NCBI GenBank assembly: GCA_964549385.1
Contig: CAZJVI010000002.1
Location: 1 to 51,105, forward strand
Direction of reading: 5' to 3'
DNA length: 51,105 bases
DNA from: an uncultured Gammaproteobacteria bacterium
Lineage (GTDB): Bacteria > Patescibacteriota > Microgenomatia > Levybacterales > UBA12049
Below, piece by piece: positions 19,472 to 51,105 of the stretch. Both the position numbers and the translations under genes were made by a program. The notes below the pieces were generated by a model, which was not told the DNA's origin, ran no database searches, and saw nothing but the letters and a program-made list of their open reading frames with translations. Each line of letters begins with the position of its first letter. Positions within the stretch are counted from its first letter, which is position 1.

Positions 19472-19555
19472 AGCTCAACTATAAAATGTTTAAGCTCATC
19501 TGTAAAGAGGCAATAAAAATTGTTTTCCCTCTGTTTTTATGCTATCTTCCCCTCT

Positions 19556-20122
19556 ATGGTAGATATATTACATCATCCTGGAGTGGTTCATGAATTTATA
19601 CGGGAGGAGACGCCATTATCAATAAGAAGAAAAAGATACTGTTTGCCTGGTGATGATAGGCCCCGGCAACACTTAATAGGAACACCAGACCTCTTCAAAG
19701 AAACACCCTTTGTATCATTGTCTAAGGAAGAGAGACAGAGAAAGACTGATCTTTTTCTTACAGATTATGATTTGGCTGAGGCATGGGAGGAAGACTTAAA
19801 AGCAACACAACGAGCTGCTACAGCAGCTCTTAATGAAGGGCTTATAGGACAATATTTGCTACTGCAACACAGTGCGCAAGAAAACACTAAAAAACTCTTG
19901 AATGCAGACCCGGATGAGCTAAAAAACATGAGAAGGAGCTACTTTCCTAAATCTATTAAGAGTTTAATGGCAATAGAATCAGCAGAGATGAGAGATAGAA
20001 GACTGGAAGCAGCAAATAGACACCTAACCGAAAAGATTAATACTGCTAAAGAAGCCGCAGAGCGAGCTCGTCTTGCTAGTTCTTCAGACACAATAGTACA
20101 AATTTTTCAAAGAAAAAAATAA
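19556..20122 (+). CDS. Hypothetical protein
   Basis: ORF only. The C-terminal half is helical and charged. The start is uncertain, and the listed ORF begins at a TTG at 19520. Confidence 0.35.
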   Translation: MVDILHHPGVVHEFIREETPLSIRRKRYCLPGDDRPRQHLIGTPDLFKETPFVSLSKEERQRKTDLFLTDYDLAEAWEEDLKATQRAATAALNEGLIGQYLLLQHSAQENTKKLLNADPDELKNMRRSYFPKSIKSLMAIESAEMRDRRLEAANRHLTEKINTAKEAAERARLASSSDTIVQIFQRKK

Positions 20123-20132
20123 ATACTCACTT

Positions 20133-23100
20133 TCAATTGACCACAAAATTGAGTATCTTTCCGGGAACGAGGATAACTTTCTTTACGCCATTTTCCAAAA
20201 ACTTTTTCACATGCTCATCTTCTCTTGCTCTCTTCTCAAGCAATTCCTTATTACTTCCATCCGCTACTGACACATCCATTGTTACGCGCAATTTACCATT
20301 CACCTGAACGGCAATTGTCACACTATCTTTCTTCAAATATTTTTCATCATAAATTGGCCACTCACTAGTATGAATAGAATGGAACCCTGTTCCCCGTTCC
20401 CTATTCCCTATTCCCTGATACAACTCCTCCGTCATATGCGGCGCAAATGGTGCCAAAAGTTTTAAGTAAACTTCCACTTCTTCTCTACTCAAGCTTTCCT
20501 GTTTTGCCAAAAAATTATAGTACGTCATAAGCTTTGCAATCGAAGTATTAAACCGCAAATTCTCCATATCCTCAGTAATCCCTTTGATCGTTTCATGCAT
20601 CATCTTCAAACTTTCCCTATTCTCTAGTCCCTGTTCCCCGTTCCCTGCTCCCTGCAACAACTTCCACACTCTCTTCAAAAAGCGGCTCATACCATCAATT
20701 CCACTGTCTCTGAAATCGCCGCCTTGATTAAATGGTCCCAAAAACAAAAGATACGTTCTCAAAGTGTCAGCACCGTATTTGCGGATATAATCATCAGGAT
20801 TGATGACATTGCCTTTACTTTTACTCATCTTTGAACCGTCTTTGATAATCAAACCATGAGCATAGAACCTCGTGAACGGCTCTTCGAAATCAACATATCC
20901 CATGTCCTTCAGTGCCATCATGAGGAATCGTGAGTAAAGCAAATGCAGAACAGAATGCTCAGCTCCACCGATATATGAAGTCACTGGTAACCAAACTCTT
21001 CTCTTTTCAGCACTTTCAATTTCACCCTTTGTAGCGCCTTTAAATTCTTGAGCTTTTTCTTTTGGCATTGGGAATGGAATATGTTTCAAATCCGTTGCCA
21101 AGTACCGTAAGAAATACCATGCGGAATCCAAAAAGGTATCTGAAACATCAGTTTCTCGAATTGCTTTGCCACCACAGTGTGGACATGTCGTCTCATAAAA
21201 TTCTGGATGATTCGCAAGCGGTGCTTTGCCCGTACCAAGCGGCTTGAAATTTTTAATGTATGGCAATAACACTGGCAAATTCTCTTCTGGGTACCAGCCG
21301 AGATTGTGAACCTCAACTTCTGGAAATTCCTCAAGAATTGTTGGGAATTCAAGAATGCCAGCACCAGCATTGAAATGTCCATGCTTTTTGAAAACTTTTA
21401 CTCGCGGGTTCAAAACGGTATATGTCTTTTCAACAGACAACGGAATATATGGATCATCATCTGAGAGATACAAAACTGTCTGGTTCACTGATTTTGCAAC
21501 ATCGTTAAGTTTCGCAGTTGATTTATTGAATGTCTTAATCACCTTTTCAGCATGATAGTATCCAGCTTTTCGCAATACTTCCCAATTTTTCTCGCCTTGT
21601 TCTTTTGCAGTTGGTGCAACAAGAATCAATTTCTCAACCGATAATTTACTTTGTCGGATAAATTCAATAGCAGTTGGCGCACCGAGACTGTGTGCAACAA
21701 TCGATACAGTATCTTTTTTTGTGATGCCGAGTTTTTTTAACGCGCCAGTCCACTCTGCAAGCGTTGGTGTATCTGCATTAGGCAAATCAGGAATGATAAC
21801 ATCATATCCCTTTGTTTCGATGAGCTTTTTAAACCAAGGGAGCCAATTCTCTTCACTGTTGCCTCCTAGTCCATGAAGCAATAGAACCTTAGGTTTTCTC
21901 TTTGCACATTCCGCACAATAAATCATTGGAATTGGCGGCCCCCAATATCTTTGACGTGAAATCAACCAATCTCGCAAATGATAGGTCACTTCCCTTTTAC
22001 CATATCCTTCCTTTTCAATATGATCCATGATCACAACAGTTGCTTTATGAATATCCATACCGTTTAAGAAACCTGAGTTGATCATCTTTCCTTCTTCTTC
22101 CTGTACTTGCTCTATTTTTATAATGGGAGAATCATCGTCATCTTTGCCCACAACAACTCGAATAATTTCTAGACCAAACTTCGTCGCAAACTCAAAGTCT
22201 CTTTTATCATGTCCAGGAACTCCAACCAGTGCACCGGTCCCAAAACCACCAAGAACGAAATCAGAAACCCAAATCGGCATCTGATATCCGGTCAAAGGAT
22301 TCATTGCATATAATCCAGTAAAGACACCTGTCTTTTCTTTCCCTTCTGCTTGTCGTTCTATTTCCGACTTGTTCATCGCTTTATCAACATATTGTTGGAT
22401 TTTCTTCACTAATTGAGCATCAGTTTTGACTACACCTTTTAATATCTTTGAAACGAGTTCATGCTCAGGAGCAAGTGCGATAAATGTTGCACCGAAGTTA
22501 GTGTCAGGTCGTGTTGTAAAAATTGTAACAGTTTCATTACTATCGGCGATTTTATATGTTATGTTAATTCCTTCTTTCTTTCCTATCCAATTTTTCTGTG
22601 CAAGTCGCACCTTTTCACTCCAATTCAAATCTTTAATATTATTGAGCAAAGGTTCAGCGTACTTCGTGATTTTGAAAAACCATTGTTCAAGATCTCTCTT
22701 CTCAACAATACTGCCGCAGCGTTCACACTGCCCATCAATCACTTGTTCATCAGATAAAACGGTCTTACATGATGGGCAAAAATTAACCGGAGAGTTTTTC
22801 TTATAAGCCAAACCTGATTTAAAAAGTTGTACAAAGATCCATTGAGTCCAGCGGTAATATTCAGGATCATAAGTCTCCAATTTATTTTTCCAGGCAAAAG
22901 CATTTCCTGTTTCATGTAATTGTCTATAAAAGTTTTTCTCCGTCCTCTTTGCGTGATCTACAGGATGGTCATTTGTTTTGATTGCATGGTTCTCGGAGTG
23001 AATGCCAAACCCATCAAGACCCATTGGTTGGAAAACCTCATACCCCATCATCCTCTTAAATCGACCAAATGCATCAACTCCTCCTGAAGTGTAACTAAAT

Positions 23101-23348
23101 CCGACATGTAACCCTTCTGCTGATGGATATGGGAACATCATCAAATTATAATAAAGTGTGCGTGACCTTTTGCTCTTCTTTTTAGCCTCGTTTACTGAAG
23201 CCCTTGAAGCTGATGGAGCCTTAGCAGTATCGAAGTCAGGCTGATAGATACCCTCCTTCCCCCATTTAGCTTGCCATTTCGGCTCAATCGTTAAATGGTC
23301 ATAACTTTTTTTCTTAATATTTTTTGTTTTAGCTTTATTTGTGCTCAT
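20133..23348 (-). CDS. leuS: Leucyl-tRNA synthetase with a nested alpha/beta serine-hydrolase domain
   Basis: CP1 editing motif TTRPDTNFGATF, KMSKSKGN, RQRYWGPPIPM and RETDVSDTFLDSAWYFLRY. It is 1071 aa long because of insertions (see findings). Confidence 0.92.
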   Translation of the reverse strand: MSTNKAKTKNIKKKSYDHLTIEPKWQAKWGKEGIYQPDFDTAKAPSASRASVNEAKKKSKRSRTLYYNLMMFPYPSAEGLHVGFSYTSGGVDAFGRFKRMMGYEVFQPMGLDGFGIHSENHAIKTNDHPVDHAKRTEKNFYRQLHETGNAFAWKNKLETYDPEYYRWTQWIFVQLFKSGLAYKKNSPVNFCPSCKTVLSDEQVIDGQCERCGSIVEKRDLEQWFFKITKYAEPLLNNIKDLNWSEKVRLAQKNWIGKKEGINITYKIADSNETVTIFTTRPDTNFGATFIALAPEHELVSKILKGVVKTDAQLVKKIQQYVDKAMNKSEIERQAEGKEKTGVFTGLYAMNPLTGYQMPIWVSDFVLGGFGTGALVGVPGHDKRDFEFATKFGLEIIRVVVGKDDDDSPIIKIEQVQEEEGKMINSGFLNGMDIHKATVVIMDHIEKEGYGKREVTYHLRDWLISRQRYWGPPIPMIYCAECAKRKPKVLLLHGLGGNSEENWLPWFKKLIETKGYDVIIPDLPNADTPTLAEWTGALKKLGITKKDTVSIVAHSLGAPTAIEFIRQSKLSVEKLILVAPTAKEQGEKNWEVLRKAGYYHAEKVIKTFNKSTAKLNDVAKSVNQTVLYLSDDDPYIPLSVEKTYTVLNPRVKVFKKHGHFNAGAGILEFPTILEEFPEVEVHNLGWYPEENLPVLLPYIKNFKPLGTGKAPLANHPEFYETTCPHCGGKAIRETDVSDTFLDSAWYFLRYLATDLKHIPFPMPKEKAQEFKGATKGEIESAEKRRVWLPVTSYIGGAEHSVLHLLYSRFLMMALKDMGYVDFEEPFTRFYAHGLIIKDGSKMSKSKGNVINPDDYIRKYGADTLRTYLLFLGPFNQGGDFRDSGIDGMSRFLKRVWKLLQGAGNGEQGLENRESLKMMHETIKGITEDMENLRFNTSIAKLMTYYNFLAKQESLSREEVEVYLKLLAPFAPHMTEELYQGIGNRERGTGFHSIHTSEWPIYDEKYLKKDSVTIAVQVNGKLRVTMDVSVADGSNKELLEKRAREDEHVKKFLENGVKKVILVPGKILNFVVN

Positions 23349-27025: not shown

Positions 27026-30000
27026 ATGGATATAGTAAAAGAATTTAAAAATCATTTACTGACACAAAAAAATCCGCCCAGTCATCTAACGATAAAGAAT
27101 TATCTTTCTGATGTAAGAAGGTTCTTTAATTGGTTTGAAAATACTTATCAAACACCTTTTAATCCGCAATGGCTTAACAAAGAAGTCATTTGTCGCTATC
27201 AGAATGAAATCCAATTAACAGGACAGAGTTCTCTCTCAGCAGCCAGTTCGATAAAACGATATCTTTCTTCTCTTCGCAAATTCACAAGCTTTCTAGAAGA
27301 ATCTGGAGCCATAAATACCAACCCGTTTTCACTCCTTCAACAAGTAGAGCCTCAAACTGATCCATTTTTCTTTAAAGAATTTAAAAATTATCTTTTCACC
27401 GAACACGCAAGCAGGCTAACAATAAAAAATTACCTTGCAGATCTTAGACAATTTATTGACTGGCTAGAACAAGTAACGAGTAAAGGTAATTCTGAAGCTA
27501 ATCAGCCTCAAAATAGCAATCTACTGCAATCGATTGATAATTACGTTTTGGAACAGTATAAGACAAGGCTCCTGAACGAAGCCAAACTCTCCCCTATATC
27601 CATTAACCGTAAACTTTCATCACTACGGAGATACGTACGATGGTTGAATGAAAAAGGAATACTCGAAGATATTCTTATCCAGCCATACTCAGAACCTGAA
27701 AATAAAAAAGTCGAAATCAAAGAAGAAAATCCGCCTGTTCAAGTGCAAATGCCTGAATTACCGTTAACGGTTTTGCAGGGAATGTCTGAAGAAGACGAAA
27801 AAATTAAAACCAATTATTCACGGTTTGCCCCTTTCAGATTGATGCAAAAAACTACAAAAGCTATCAATCTAGGTACTGATTTGCTATTTTTTGGTCCTAT
27901 AGCCCATGTTGCCGAAGCTATTCATTATTCAATCTGGAAAAGCGGAAAAAAAACAATTTTTGCGCCAGTAAAGACTATTCTTAAGACTTCTTCATATATT
28001 CCTACAGGAGTATCAGTCAAAACAATTATCCCAAAAGCATCAAGCATTATGCCACCACGATCTGCTAATTTAGCTTCGGTTTTGGACAAAATACAACAAT
28101 ATCGAATAGCTTCCAAGCCTGAAACAGTTCATAACTTTGCCAAAGCTCTCTATGCTCCTTTAAAACTTTCGACTCAAAGCATGGACTGGAAGCAAAAAGT
28201 TCTTTATCACATTCGATACACTAGACCAAACTGGTACAGAAACTATCATTCTTTTGCTTTTGTCCATTACTTACATATCGGCATTCTGATAATGGCAACA
28301 GTTATTTCAGGAGCTACTTTATTTATAACCTGGTATGGAACAGGCTCAAGCCAAAAACAAGCAGTTCTCGCAGCTCAAGACACTGCGCCACCACGGACAC
28401 TATCCTTCCAAGGAAGACTACTCGATAACACCGACACACCCATAACCGCAGAGACACCTCTGCGGTTTGCTCTGTATAATAGCCCCGCTGCATCAGGTGC
28501 TGCACTTCTTTGGCAAGAAACTCAAGATATCAAACCGGATCAAAACGGACACTTCACTGCAACTCTCGGTGAAAGAAATCGATTAGATCAAAATGTCTTC
28601 ACCAATAATCCTTCGCTTTATATTGGACTCACCGTAGGGAACAATCAAGAACTCACGCCTAGACAACAAATTCCAACGACCGAATATGCTGCTAATTCGC
28701 AAACTGTTGAAGGGCTCCCGCCTATCACTGATAATCCTGATGTAGCTCAAAATGTGCTTCTTGCCCTTGATTCTTCTGGCAATTTAACTATAGGTGGAAA
28801 CTCAAGCCATACCTTCCAGGCAACTGGAGGCCAATTTAGTATAATCGGTCAAACACTATCGCTTACTACAAACTCTGGATCAAATGGCGATATAAAAATT
28901 GCTCCTGACGGATCGGGAATTATTGATCTTGAAAAACCTATTCAAAATATATCAAACTATACCGGACCATCAGGTATCCCAGGTGCCCTGGAGGTCGATG
29001 ATTTACTGTCAGTTTTTGCTACCTCAAGTAGTCAATCAGCCCTTACTGTCAACCAAAACGGTACAGGCGAAATCATTAGCGGAAAGAGTCATGGAACTGA
29101 TAAATTCACCATTGATACCAATGGTAATGAGTTTATAAAGGGTAATCTTATCCTCGATGGTGATACTATAAACACTAATTCGACAGTCTTTGATATAGCA
29201 GGATCTAGTGTCAGGAGCCTTAGCATCGGCGATCATGCGTCTATTATTTCTTTGGGAGGATCAAGCGGCATCACATCAATCAATAATAGTTTGTCCGTTC
29301 AAGGATCTGTTACTGCCAATGGACTCATTACTGCTAATGCAGGACTAACTATCAGCTCGGGACAAAAATTAACACTTCCCGACTTTAGCCCGAATGGCAT
29401 TCCTTTCATCAATGGCAATAATCAAATGGTTCAAGATGCAGGAAGCTTTTCATGGGACGATGCAAATAAAATATTAAATGTTTTTGGAACGATGTGTGTT
29501 CAAGACAGCTCTACTACCTGTAATGCAAGCCCAGGAACAATTTATGCAGCTTCTTATCAAGCCGCACCTGCTGACCTTGCTGAGAATTATGTCTCATCAC
29601 AACAGCTTCAACCAGGCAATGTCGTCACTCTTGAAGGGCAAGGAAACACTGAAGCAATTCGTGAATCGACAACGCCTTACCAGAAAGAGCTTATCGGAAT
29701 CATATCAACTAAACCTGGAATTACTTTAAATTCTGATGCTAAAGCTGACTCGACTCATCTTTATGTTTATCCTGTCGCGCTCCAAGGGAGAGTCCCGGTG
29801 AAAATTTCAAGCATTAACGGTGCTATCAAAGCCGGAGATAATATCACCTCTTCTTCAATTCCTGGTGTTGCTATGGATGCAAGCGGCTCTGGACAAATCA
29901 TCGGTAAAGCTCTTGAATCCTATACTGATCCAAACCCTAACGATGTGGGTCAGATAATGGTTTTTGTGAACCTCTCCTCTCAAACATCTCCAACTGCAAT

Positions 30001-31405
30001 CACTGATAGTGGAAATATCATGGCTGCTAGCGAATCGGCAACAGTAAATGATAACACTACCCAAACCATGAATCAACCCATGAATTCAACCAATCTTGCA
30101 GAATTCCTCTCAAATATTGCAGGAACCATTCAATTGGGTGCAGTGCAAGTTCAAACACTAACAACACAGTCGCTTTCCGTCGCGACAGATAATATAACAA
30201 TCGGCGGTGAAACGCTTAAGGATTACATTACGCAGATTGTCGATCAGATAGTAGAACAGCGACTCAACAAACATCTAGCACAGATCCCTCAAAAGCCTCA
30301 GATTCTTAGCCCTGTTGCAAGTAATTCTGCTCAATTAGCAGATCAAAACATATCGCAATCGATAATACCAACGCAAAACGCCAGTCAAAGTGCTGCCGTA
30401 CAAACTGCAAACAATGGAAACGCAAGCCCCGCAGCGACCGTTGTATATAATATATATAATAGTATAGCGACACAAAGCGCAGAGGCAGCCACTATTTCTG
30501 CAACGCCGACCATTAGTCCAATACCAACGGCAGACGATACACAACTTCAGGCAAGTGATTCTGGAAATATCGACTCAGAAAATATTGATACCAATACTTT
30601 TGAGCCTGCCGCGAGTTTAAGTGGCCAATTACAAAATGTCCCAAATCTTCAAGCAAGCTTCGGCACATTCAATCAAGGGCTCGTGGCACTCGGCCCAACG
30701 AGCCTGACAGATGTCGGAGTACAAGGGACTATTTCAGTGAATAATAATTTAAAAATTACGGCTGACGCAATAAACACCATCGGCTCAAATCTCAATATCG
30801 AGCCGCTTCGTCAAGGCAATATTCTTTTCATGGGAGGATTAGTGGCAATTGACACGCAAGGCAACCTTCAGGTCAACGGCAATGCAGTCTTCTCACATAA
30901 CGTAGCTGTCAAAGGTGAGCTTGCCGCAGGCATTATCGCGCCTATTCCGAATAATGATCTTATTATCAACTTGAAAAATAAGGCAGACAAAACAGCTTCT
31001 TCACTTATTATTACCAATGCAACAGGCAGTGGCGTTTTGCAAATTAATCAATCTGGAGATCTGACTTCTTCAGGTGATGCGAAATTTAATTCTGTTGCAA
31101 GCAATGGCTTCTCAATTATCCGTGGTGCACAAGCTGATACTTCGATGACCGAAACTGTGGCTAATGGATCTGCAGGAACAGGAGTCATCAGTGCTTATGA
31201 GACGCAACGAACCATTATCACACAATTTGTAACTGCTCATTCACTTATTTATATTACGCCAACTTCAAATACTGATACTGTCACGCCCTATCTTGCCAGA
31301 CAAACAATTCAAGATCCAAACAATGGATCGCAAGGCTCGTTTACCGTTGAAATACCAACGAGCATAACAAAAGATATTGGATTTAATTGGTGGATAGTAA
31401 ATTAG
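27026..31405 (+). CDS. Giant single-pass membrane protein: two N-terminal integrase-type SAM-like (core-binding) domains, a TM helix and a roughly 1000-aa extracellular fibre/beta-helix-like region
   Basis: Repeated TIKNYLSDVRRFFNWFE...SIKRYLSSLRKF and TIKNYLADLRQFIDWLE...SINRKLSSLRRYVRWL. TM helix FVHYLHIGILIMATVISGATLFITWYG (about 28250-28336). Ser/Thr/Gly/Asn-rich exodomain with ADLAENY...GNVV. No tyrosine-recombinase catalytic domain. Confidence 0.55.
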   Translation: MDIVKEFKNHLLTQKNPPSHLTIKNYLSDVRRFFNWFENTYQTPFNPQWLNKEVICRYQNEIQLTGQSSLSAASSIKRYLSSLRKFTSFLEESGAINTNPFSLLQQVEPQTDPFFFKEFKNYLFTEHASRLTIKNYLADLRQFIDWLEQVTSKGNSEANQPQNSNLLQSIDNYVLEQYKTRLLNEAKLSPISINRKLSSLRRYVRWLNEKGILEDILIQPYSEPENKKVEIKEENPPVQVQMPELPLTVLQGMSEEDEKIKTNYSRFAPFRLMQKTTKAINLGTDLLFFGPIAHVAEAIHYSIWKSGKKTIFAPVKTILKTSSYIPTGVSVKTIIPKASSIMPPRSANLASVLDKIQQYRIASKPETVHNFAKALYAPLKLSTQSMDWKQKVLYHIRYTRPNWYRNYHSFAFVHYLHIGILIMATVISGATLFITWYGTGSSQKQAVLAAQDTAPPRTLSFQGRLLDNTDTPITAETPLRFALYNSPAASGAALLWQETQDIKPDQNGHFTATLGERNRLDQNVFTNNPSLYIGLTVGNNQELTPRQQIPTTEYAANSQTVEGLPPITDNPDVAQNVLLALDSSGNLTIGGNSSHTFQATGGQFSIIGQTLSLTTNSGSNGDIKIAPDGSGIIDLEKPIQNISNYTGPSGIPGALEVDDLLSVFATSSSQSALTVNQNGTGEIISGKSHGTDKFTIDTNGNEFIKGNLILDGDTINTNSTVFDIAGSSVRSLSIGDHASIISLGGSSGITSINNSLSVQGSVTANGLITANAGLTISSGQKLTLPDFSPNGIPFINGNNQMVQDAGSFSWDDANKILNVFGTMCVQDSSTTCNASPGTIYAASYQAAPADLAENYVSSQQLQPGNVVTLEGQGNTEAIRESTTPYQKELIGIISTKPGITLNSDAKADSTHLYVYPVALQGRVPVKISSINGAIKAGDNITSSSIPGVAMDASGSGQIIGKALESYTDPNPNDVGQIMVFVNLSSQTSPTAITDSGNIMAASESATVNDNTTQTMNQPMNSTNLAEFLSNIAGTIQLGAVQVQTLTTQSLSVATDNITIGGETLKDYITQIVDQIVEQRLNKHLAQIPQKPQILSPVASNSAQLADQNISQSIIPTQNASQSAAVQTANNGNASPAATVVYNIYNSIATQSAEAATISATPTISPIPTADDTQLQASDSGNIDSENIDTNTFEPAASLSGQLQNVPNLQASFGTFNQGLVALGPTSLTDVGVQGTISVNNNLKITADAINTIGSNLNIEPLRQGNILFMGGLVAIDTQGNLQVNGNAVFSHNVAVKGELAAGIIAPIPNNDLIINLKNKADKTASSLIITNATGSGVLQINQSGDLTSSGDAKFNSVASNGFSIIRGAQADTSMTETVANGSAGTGVISAYETQRTIITQFVTAHSLIYITPTSNTDTVTPYLARQTIQDPNNGSQGSFTVEIPTSITKDIGFNWWIVN

Positions 31406-49562: not shown

Positions 49563-49675
49563 TCCTGGCGATGACCTATTTTCCCACTAAAAAGCAGTAT
49601 CGTGAGCGCTGTTACGTTTCACTTCTCTGTTCGGAATGGGAAGAGGTGGTGCCATAACGCTTCAATCACCAGAAA
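49563..49675 (-). rRNA. rrf: 5S ribosomal RNA
   Basis: The minus-strand reading contains cccattccgaacagagaagtgaaacg, matching the conserved 5S loop. Helix I pairs ctggtgat with atcgccag. Ends are approximate to within a few nt. Confidence 0.85.
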
Positions 49676-49773: not shown

Positions 49774-49819
49774 AGCGAGCATAGCTCGCTAAAAAGTGAA
49801 GAGATAGTCTTTAAAAATT

Positions 49820-51105
<1,286 letters not shown>

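Follow-up and report, generated by a model that had tools for sequence, protein, structure and literature searches.

The leucyl-tRNA synthetase (LeuRS) encoded in the 51,105-nucleotide stretch of DNA analyzed here (contig CAZJVI010000002.1 of assembly GCA_964549385.1, positions 1 to 51,105; referred to below as the window) contains, nested within its polypeptide chain, a serine hydrolase of the YdeN/RBBP9 type that is complete by profile, by fold and by catalytic triad. Aminoacyl-tRNA synthetases are among the best-studied enzymes, and their accessory and editing domains define the accuracy of translation. Synthetases with embedded editing domains, or with an unrelated enzyme nested in them, are known kinds of protein; a serine hydrolase in a LeuRS appears to be new. 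The insertion had been noticed in an earlier sequence-only reading of the window, whose author knew of no described LeuRS of this architecture. No such description was indeed found in the literature searched, nor was a curated NCBIfam model, but the architecture is neither peculiar to the window nor entirely unlabelled: about 29 of the 120 best LeuRS relatives share it, and the automatic JGI product name of some of these proteins reads 'leucyl-tRNA synthetase/predicted alpha/beta hydrolase family esterase'.

The nested hydrolase and its insertion point

The LeuRS gene is a complete, uninterrupted open reading frame (ORF) of 1071 amino acids (aa) on the minus strand (20133..23348), which the leuS_bact equivalog model TIGR00396 matches with 847.2 bits against a trusted cut-off of 548.4, in two stretches with a break at aa 483. 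A segment of 197 residues (aa 487-683; 21300..21890, minus strand) separates RQRYWGPPIPMIYCAECAKRKP (aa 465-486) from GWYPEENLPVLLPYIKNF (aa 684-701). The earlier placement of the insert at 21297-21900 was therefore essentially right, and all the motifs quoted at that time (HSLG, DDDPY, HGHF and KMSKS) were found in the ORF. As had been expected of a profile search, the segment matches PF06821 (Ser_hydrolase, DUF1234) on aa 488-673 (21330-21887) with E=1.3e-18 and 67.9 bits against a cut-off of 22; the match, which runs over profile positions 1-168 of 172, greatly exceeds what chance would give. The best match of the insert sequence alone among proteins of the PDB is Bacillus subtilis YdeN (1uxo; 7e-13), and a profile of the subfamily retrieves 1uxo at 5.5e-32, followed by human RBBP9 at 4e-20. 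Structure modelling agrees with the assignment. For aa 480-690, AlphaFold2 (AF2) with an alignment of 31 sequences gave a model that has a six-stranded alpha/beta architecture, a predicted local distance difference test (pLDDT) score of 94.1 and a predicted template-modelling (pTM) score of 0.90, and the top seven Foldseek matches in the PDB are headed by 1uxo (TM 0.82, target-normalised; root-mean-square deviation 2.5 Å), followed by the RBBP9 structures 7oex, 9fcr and 2qs9 (TM 0.71-0.76). In the model of the full-length LeuRS (pLDDT 86, pTM 0.79), the insert reaches pLDDT values of 91-97 and the junction blocks exceed 80.

The catalytic Ser and the later Asp and His that the sequence-only reading had pointed out are found at the predicted residues. 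The predicted nucleophile Ser554 (AHSLG, with HSLG at aa 553-556; codon 21687..21689, minus strand) aligns with Ser75 of RBBP9 and with the nucleophile of YdeN, Asp632 (third D of DDDPY, aa 630-634; codon 21453..21455, minus strand) with Asp138 of RBBP9, and His658 (in HGHF, aa 656-659; codon 21375..21377, minus strand) with His165. When 179 domains were aligned together with RBBP9 and YdeN, the three triad columns proved invariant in 46/46 synthetase-nested copies, and the HG (oxyanion) and GxSxG motifs are kept in nearly all of them, although these copies diverge down to about 30% identity; the nested hydrolase is thus apparently catalytically competent. A former hydrolase that now serves, without catalysis, as a structural or tRNA-binding appendage would resemble the many synthetase accessory domains that are non-catalytic and would suit the well-ordered modelling of the junctions, but such near-invariance of triad and motifs would not be expected once catalysis had been lost, and we consider this alternative highly improbable.

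The likeness to YdeN (1uxo) and RBBP9 (2qs9/7oex) comprises a fold of about 190 aa, the triad positions and the HG, GHSxG, DDP and GHF motifs, whereas both of these proteins are free-standing and without a lid, and the window copy is nested in another enzyme. The subfamily-specific lid, EKNWEVLRKAGYYHAE in the window protein (about aa 586-601; 21546..21593, minus strand), was recognised in the 179-domain alignment as a segment of about 15-20 residues (EKNW[ED]xL[RK]...) that occurs in most of the LeuRS-nested and LeuRS-adjacent free copies and is absent from RBBP9 and YdeN. The residues that set the specificity of RBBP9 form an aromatic cage and an alpha-amine anchor (Tyr99, Leu103, Glu108, Phe140 and Leu141; PMC8866121). 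Three of them are not kept in the subfamily, where Tyr99 is replaced by Thr, Val or Ala, Leu103 mostly by Gln, and Glu108 is without conserved counterpart; at the positions of Phe140 and Leu141, hydrophobic residues are found (Tyr and Ile in the window hydrolase). Judged by its pocket residues, the insert is not an orthologue of RBBP9, and nothing but the general chemistry of that enzyme is drawn on below; with the lid added as well, the substrate specificity of RBBP9 cannot be carried over to the insert.

Alignment with the Thermus thermophilus enzyme places the insertion in the turn directly after the equivalent of C439-x-x-C442, just downstream of the first zinc knuckle of the window protein (C478-x-x-C481; 21906..21917, minus strand). 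The partner of this knuckle, C722-P-H-C725 (21174..21185, minus strand), aligns with T. thermophilus C484/C487. These four T. thermophilus cysteines (C439/C442/C484/C487) constitute what we take to be the second zinc site of Thermus LeuRS, and the knuckle cysteines are kept in 125-127 of 130 relatives. The junctions of the window protein read KRKP/KVLLL and VHNL/GWY (the slash marking the border), and the homologues fused at this position, called site III below, all share the junction ...YC-x-x-C-x-x-K-P / K-[VI]-L-x-x-H-G ... / G-W-x-P-[VE]-P-E-x-x-L-P. The 197-aa insertion is real, but the spacing of about 10-20 residues that had been given for the flanking motifs in ordinary LeuRS needs a small correction: in T. 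thermophilus the CxxC knuckle and PVPEE are no more than about 3-4 residues apart, and the closest unfused relatives (P0022, P0024-P0030 and P0033-P0048) have, in the place of the hydrolase, a variable low-complexity loop of 22-45 aa that starts with G[ED]SWF[TS]TKE. Compact LeuRS have only C-x-x-C-G-x-x-P-V-P-E at site III, and since they are short there while the closest unfused enzymes carry a variable loop, this site is a surface loop that tolerates insertions. A very short 'WF..TKEG' stretch of the unfused loop faintly recalls 'PWFKKLIETKG' near the N-terminus of the hydrolase, and the loop could be a deletion remnant of the latter. Two site-III fused LeuRS of a distant clade, P0142 and P0242, have lost the first CxxC (they read IWKERTNPDK and IYKELDKEEQ) and carry the hydrolase at the same place, so that the zinc site is not needed to host the insert. 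The remark that intein splicing motifs are missing was likewise correct: no splicing residues are found at the junctions and the hydrolase fold accounts for the entire insert, which rules out an intein. Note also that the 'HN' before the C-terminal junction precedes Leu-Gly and is not conserved (DNNGW in L008, ENAGW in P0021).

Distribution and origins of the hydrolase-LeuRS association

The identical 1071-aa protein is encoded on seven contigs from four sources (NCBI, JGI/IMG, Logan and ENA; the longest is 57.7 kb), and intact single-frame fused genes are found on the metagenome loci L007 (75% identity), L009 (71%) and L008 (about 44%). With these contigs and dozens of independent homologues at hand, the suspicion of a chimeric assembly, which had been named as a way to refute the original observation, did not hold. 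The wider possibility of an artefact (chimeric assembly or two frameshifted genes) or of a selfish element (an intein or a mobile insertion) would be favoured by locus L001, where the fused gene is split over several frames; because the arginyl-tRNA synthetase (ArgRS) gene on the same contig is fragmented too, these breaks are best taken as indel sequencing errors. As guanine-plus-cytosine content is moreover continuous across the insert junctions, and given the absence of intein residues and an insert filled by the hydrolase fold, we attach almost no credence to this explanation.

The survey of LeuRS orthologues that had been suggested as a check gave a clear pattern, the roughly 29 relatives with a PF06821 insert all carrying it at the same junction; they are 51-82% identical, measure 1006-1115 aa and come from four sources. 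The GTDB species genomes yielded only four distant free-standing relatives of the hydrolase (25-37% identity) and no fused LeuRS. In comparisons of the window gene with L007 and L009, the proportion of synonymous differences (pS) is about 0.7 and thus saturated, whereas the proportion of nonsynonymous differences (pN) is 0.20-0.24 in the insert and 0.12-0.20 in the LeuRS body. The low pN relative to saturated pS, comparable with that of the LeuRS body, indicates that the insert is under purifying selection. Within the window-type group, in which the divergences of insert and body correlate (r=0.87), the sequences suggest mostly vertical inheritance with losses or allele replacement; fused and unfused LeuRS are interleaved in the tree, even at body identities of at least 80%. 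The L008 protein (Ga0247841_10021159) is an outlier, with an insert 53-56% identical to that of the window and a LeuRS body that is only 45-46% identical, and P0148, from the body clade of L008, has an insert of about 32% identity. The L008 insert could have been acquired by lateral transfer, or by independent capture from a similar donor.

An exhaustive phmmer search with the insert against 1.84 billion representative sequences returned 1890 relatives, most of them free-standing and about 190 aa in length. All 15 of the long proteins examined among the best 150 of these relatives are class Ia synthetases or fragments of them, 14 being LeuRS and one an isoleucyl-tRNA synthetase (IleRS). When mapped on a compact reference LeuRS, the insertions fall on three hot-spots: site I, just before the TTRPDT motif, hosts Ser_hydrolase or Ham1 (inosine triphosphatase, ITPase) domains; site II, a variable loop inside the CP1 domain after GHD, hosts Ser_hydrolase, NUDIX or modules of about 110 aa; and site III, the zinc knuckle used in the window, hosts Ser_hydrolase or a module of about 110 aa. 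The related CPR LeuRS P0128, P0134, P0135, P0140, P0142, P0148, P0177 and P0206 have such other enzymes nested in them, namely NUDIX domains at site II, in which the Nudix box is clear, and Ham1 domains at site I, in some cases (P0128, P0134, P0135, P0140 and P0142) in the same LeuRS as a Ser_hydrolase; P0128 has two tandem hydrolases plus a NUDIX domain. The modules of about 110 aa at site II are without clear Pfam match (P0080 aa 374-498, P0108 aa 350-476, L008 aa ~426-540), and the one at site III of P0130 (aa 373-493) looks ASCH/PUA-like by eye. In the IleRS-like protein P0212 (1394 aa), the Ser_hydrolase is nested between the core motifs DCWFESGSMPY and EGLDQTRGWFY, and a histidine phosphatase (His_Phos_1) domain is nested after KMSKS; homology of this insertion to the LeuRS sites is ruled out, P0212 representing a fourth topological position. 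Ser_hydrolase and NUDIX also occur without LeuRS as two-domain proteins, in either order (P0208, 369 aa; P0232, 337 aa), which suggests a functional link between these two hydrolases as well.

Among the free-standing relatives, those nearest to the nested copies adjoin LeuRS in 4/4 recovered contexts. At L002, the hydrolase gene lies 41 bp upstream of a normal 841-aa LeuRS; this hydrolase is 52% identical to the window insert, and the LeuRS bodies are 39-43% identical. The order on L011 (Ga0208544_10000360) is LeuRS, a small alpha/beta-hydrolase-like ORF, hydrolase, a membrane ORF and a second hydrolase, and the source of this locus is Gracilibacteria/Absconditabacteria-like, since its long ORFs appear only under genetic code 25 (UGA = Gly). 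The 164-aa ORF between LeuRS and the first Ser_hydrolase of L011 has the look of a small alpha/beta hydrolase (GFSFG elbow, GVGH). At L023-25, the hydrolase starts 2 nt past the LeuRS stop codon. At L027/L028 (Ga0114946_10005870 and ERZ27245627 k141_1213696), a free hydrolase gene precedes a bacterial-type LeuRS by 28 bp, and this LeuRS itself contains a further copy at site I; the contig also encodes the archaeal markers ribosomal protein S17e and tRNA-intron endonuclease, which suggests a DPANN-like archaeon that uses a bacterial-type LeuRS. Fusion and conserved adjacency across distant lineages together provide strong comparative evidence that this hydrolase subfamily works with LeuRS.

In a neighbour-joining tree, the nested hydrolases are distributed over about five sub-lineages, each with free-standing relatives. 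A single origin of all nested copies is not supported, in view of these sub-lineages and of the interleaving of fused and unfused LeuRS; the subfamily appears instead to have joined LeuRS about five separate times, a number that is approximate because the trees are quick distance trees. The pairing of the hydrolase subfamily with LeuRS appears to have been repeatedly selected. One may ask whether the guest is nevertheless a mere passenger, that is, an independent house-keeping esterase caught in permissive loops of an essential, highly expressed gene, where its co-expression and its retention in a streamlined genome would be guaranteed, without any catalytic cross-talk with LeuRS. Several observations are in line with this explanation: the insertion points are all variable surface loops (the low-complexity loop at site III and the CP1 loop at site II), unrelated guests (NUDIX, Ham1, His_Phos_1 and the modules of about 110 aa) use the same hot-spots, the insertion position is not conserved between lineages, and the patchy occurrence of the trait among closely related enzymes means that LeuRS works without the hydrolase. 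However, tolerance to insertion leaves unexplained why free relatives stand beside LeuRS in four distant lineages and in different orientations, and why, of the 15 long hosts examined in the top 150 relatives, 14 are LeuRS although other large and essential proteins could have served; that LeuRS captured the hydrolase independently about five times rather points to selection for the pairing itself. On balance, we judge the passenger explanation somewhat unlikely.

Possible functions of the nested domain

We tentatively propose, by analogy with RBBP9, that the nested domain may be an aminoacyl-X hydrolase which is tethered to LeuRS and removes aminoacyl products of this synthetase that are not wanted. 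In such a mechanism, Ser554 would act, as in RBBP9, on the carbonyl group of one amino acid whose alpha-amine is free; the amino acid would become bound as aminoacyl-enzyme and would then be set free. The likeliest substrates would be unwanted aminoacyl products of the host synthetase, candidates being aminoacyl-tRNA(Leu) esters that are mis-made or in excess, aminoacyl-adenylate that has left the synthetase, and reactive by-products of editing, for example homocysteine thiolactone. The domain would thereby act as an extra hydrolytic clean-up module beside the intact CP1 editing site, in parallel with the NUDIX and Ham1 house-cleaning domains that are nested in related LeuRS.

An aminoacyl ester on a nucleoside is the chemistry of the 3' end of aminoacyl-tRNA, and bona fide editing modules (INS/YbaK/ProX, AlaX) occur both free-standing and embedded in synthetases. 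The best model at present for the action of the nested domain is the chemistry of RBBP9. Single hydrophobic amino acids (Leu/Ile, Phe, Tyr, Trp) are bound by this enzyme as acyl-enzyme adducts, their alpha-amine has to be free, and amide, ester or thioester bonds to such residues are given as its targets (PMC8866121). RBBP9 is also cited as activating valacyclovir, in which a nucleoside analogue is esterified with L-valine (Shenoy et al. 2020, as cited in PMC7730578). Five synthetases, LeuRS and IleRS included, convert homocysteine by editing to its reactive thiolactone (PMC5370406), and BPHL (valacyclovirase), another valacyclovir-hydrolysing alpha/beta hydrolase, is an efficient homocysteine thiolactonase (PMC4198189). 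It is for the chemistry of RBBP9 and BPHL, the homocysteine editing by LeuRS and IleRS and the hydrolase-LeuRS pairing that a clean-up hydrolase is preferred here. The idea voiced in the sequence-only reading, of an esterase that would act on aminoacyl esters, is still speculative, but the published chemistry of RBBP9 lends it indirect support, as does the strong evidence from gene fusions and gene neighbours.

Several observations weigh against this proposal. The CP1 motifs are intact in fused and unfused LeuRS alike, which leaves no obvious editing gap to fill, and a hydrolase that substitutes for a decayed CP1 site is ruled out, TTRPDT and GHD being the same in both groups of relatives. The type of substrate cannot be transferred from RBBP9, because Tyr99, Leu103 and Glu108 are not conserved and a lid has been added. 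The variation of the insertion site, with three positions in LeuRS and a fourth topology in IleRS, speaks against one precise geometry relative to the 3' end of tRNA. The distant family members (25-39% identity; L003-L006, L010, L013 and L015-L019) have no LeuRS within 6 kb, and the co-nested NUDIX and Ham1 domains fit the picture of generic house-cleaning passengers equally well.

The same chemistry lends itself to a different purpose, in which the hydrolase would be a leucine-supplying aminopeptidase that trims N-terminal Leu or Ile from scavenged peptides and hands the amino acid to LeuRS, a form of channelling for auxotrophic members of the candidate phyla radiation (CPR) or DPANN. RBBP9, the only characterized member of the family, is an aminopeptidase for which the alpha-amine has to be free, and it traps Leu/Ile among other residues (PMC8866121). 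The hosts LeuRS and IleRS both serve hydrophobic amino acids, fusion or adjacency of enzymes that act consecutively follows Rosetta-stone logic (adjacency being seen in 4/4 contexts), and an intact CP1 domain is no objection. On the other hand, the pocket and the alpha-amine anchor residues of RBBP9 are not conserved, the co-nested NUDIX and Ham1 domains and the Ser_hydrolase-NUDIX fusions have no place in amino-acid supply, no precedent of a peptidase fused to an aminoacyl-tRNA synthetase was found in the literature searched, and the diffusion of free leucine would make a benefit from channelling doubtful. We therefore regard an aminopeptidase as unlikely. Less likely by far is self-protection, in which the hydrolase (and NUDIX in relatives) would cleave leucyl-adenylate or aminoacyl-nucleoside antibiotic mimics directed at LeuRS on the target itself. 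RBBP9 does cleave a nucleoside analogue esterified with an amino acid, a leucyl-adenylate mimic that targets LeuRS is known (the structure with TM84, the agrocin 84 moiety, 3zgz, is among the fold matches), and patchy presence at strain level would be typical of defence or resistance traits; but the idea is purely analogical, stable sulfamoyl or phosphoramidate mimics are not ester substrates, and no resistance-type genes were seen around the window LeuRS, whose neighbours are ComEA, ComEC and unannotated ORFs.

Returning to the clean-up hydrolase, its closest functional counterparts would be the known hydrolytic editing modules, namely the CP1 domains of LeuRS, IleRS and valyl-tRNA synthetase (ValRS), the INS domain of prolyl-tRNA synthetase (ProRS) with the free YbaK/ProX proteins, and the editing domain of alanyl-tRNA synthetase (AlaRS) with free AlaX. 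The likeness lies in a hydrolytic domain that is located inside a synthetase or in a free gene often near it, and in the aminoacyl-ester chemistry proposed here; the differences are that the window insert has no sequence relation to these modules, that the canonical CP1 domain is still present, and that a deacylase role is putative. To our knowledge, no known editing module (CP1, INS/YbaK/ProX, AlaX) is an alpha/beta serine hydrolase, and we know of no alpha/beta serine hydrolase in an accessory or editing role in a synthetase. Pfam and NCBIfam scans of the insert returned alpha/beta-hydrolase families only, with no homology to CP1, INS/YbaK, AlaX or DTD, and the insert, if it were an editing module, would be of a new structural type. 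The curated model NF040702 (NCBIfam) describes an IleRS with an N-acetyltransferase domain and is similar in combining a class Ia synthetase with an extra catalytic domain, although there the guest is a GNAT enzyme instead of a serine hydrolase and the host IleRS instead of LeuRS. BPHL, a serine alpha/beta hydrolase that acts on alpha-amino-acid esters and homocysteine thiolactone, provides a functional analogy only, since it belongs to another alpha/beta-hydrolase family, is larger and has no association with a synthetase.

In its broadest form, the proposal would be that of a new alpha/beta-serine-hydrolase class of synthetase quality control, dedicated to LeuRS as thiolactonase or as deacylase of aminoacyl-tRNA or aminoacyl-adenylate and working either in cis, when nested, or in trans, when encoded adjacently, with the CPR/DPANN-like LeuRS as a three-hot-spot hub for repeated grafting of house-cleaning enzymes (Ser_hydrolase, NUDIX and Ham1). 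This more general claim is possible but rather doubtful. If a clean-up or deacylase function is true, the nested domain would represent a new kind of synthetase-associated quality-control enzyme, and a possible new proofreading or by-product-clearing activity is suggested. The hydrolase is retained with LeuRS in minimal genomes, where each domain that is kept is likely to be needed. The pairing also provides a tangible starting point for finding out what the widespread YdeN/RBBP9 family does physiologically, and CPR/DPANN LeuRS with several nested house-cleaning enzymes could serve as a model of how quality control is organized in streamlined cells.

The host synthetase and other features of the window

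Apart from the insert, the window enzyme follows the order of bacterial LeuRS (TIGR00396; 1h3n, 2bte, 4aq7), with Rossmann core, ZN1, CP1, second knuckle, KMSKS, anticodon-binding and C-terminal parts; it differs by the 197-aa insert after C478-x-x-C481, by the lack of a leucine-specific domain and by a HIGH motif that reads HVGF. The N-terminal half of the class I catalytic (Rossmann) domain occupies aa 65-250 (PF00133; 22599..23156, minus strand), the CP1 editing domain aa 252-444 (PF13603, E=1.7e-62; 22017..22595, minus strand), the KMSKS catalytic loop, kept in all relatives, aa 840-844 (20817..20831, minus strand) and the anticodon-binding domain aa 911-1027 (PF08264, E=2.7e-19; 20268..20618, minus strand). 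The statement that the CP1 motifs and KMSKS are intact was accurate: TTRPDT, GHD (in PGHDKRD) and KMSKS are present, and the editing motifs are identical in fused and unfused relatives. The LeuRS body of the full-length model superposes on the bacterial LeuRS-tRNA complexes 2bte, 4aq7 and 5omw with TM scores of 0.81-0.85.

In the HIGH-variant motif (HVGF within LHVGF, aa 80-84; 23100-23111 on the minus strand for aa 80-83), the second His, at the fourth motif position, is missing, while KMSKS is intact. The form HVG[FSNG] (HVGS, HVGN and HVGG in relatives) is lineage-wide in Microgenomates-like LeuRS; because it is common to fused and unfused relatives across the lineage, it is presumably functional there, and a connection between the odd HIGH motif and the insert is ruled out. 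About 3 residues (aa ~833-839, window ~20830-20850) stand in the place of the leucine-specific domain, as against about 57 residues in T. thermophilus (579-635). An extra segment of about 19 aa, MPKEKAQEFKGATKGEIESAE, lies upstream of the IGGAEH motif (aa ~756-776, window ~21020-21080). The nearest unfused LeuRS relatives bear the names Levybacteria or Patescibacteria, and judged by these names the window organism would be a CPR bacterium related to Levybacteria/Microgenomates.

We also would like to mention some features of the window that are remote from the hydrolase. The 3' part of a 23S rRNA gene (49813-51105, minus strand) covers model positions 1923-2925 (1003 positions) over 1293 nt, which leaves about 290 nt extra, possibly an insertion or intron like those reported in CPR rRNA genes; a 5S rRNA gene lies beside it at 49563-49673. 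A 1459-aa ORF (27026-31405, plus strand) has Pfam matches only to N-terminal phage-integrase SAM-like domains (aa ~69-210), and no catalytic domain was recognizable in it by Pfam. A similar gene pair, encoding a 416-aa protein with the same SAM-like domains and a 1047-aa protein, is found near LeuRS on L001, and a tetratricopeptide repeat (TPR) protein comes next in both L001 and the window. The 660-nt gap between LeuRS and ComEA is filled on the opposite strand by a 200-aa ORF (19520-20122, plus strand) with a TTG start and no Pfam match, which may not be a real gene; the corresponding gap on L001 measures only about 280 nt.

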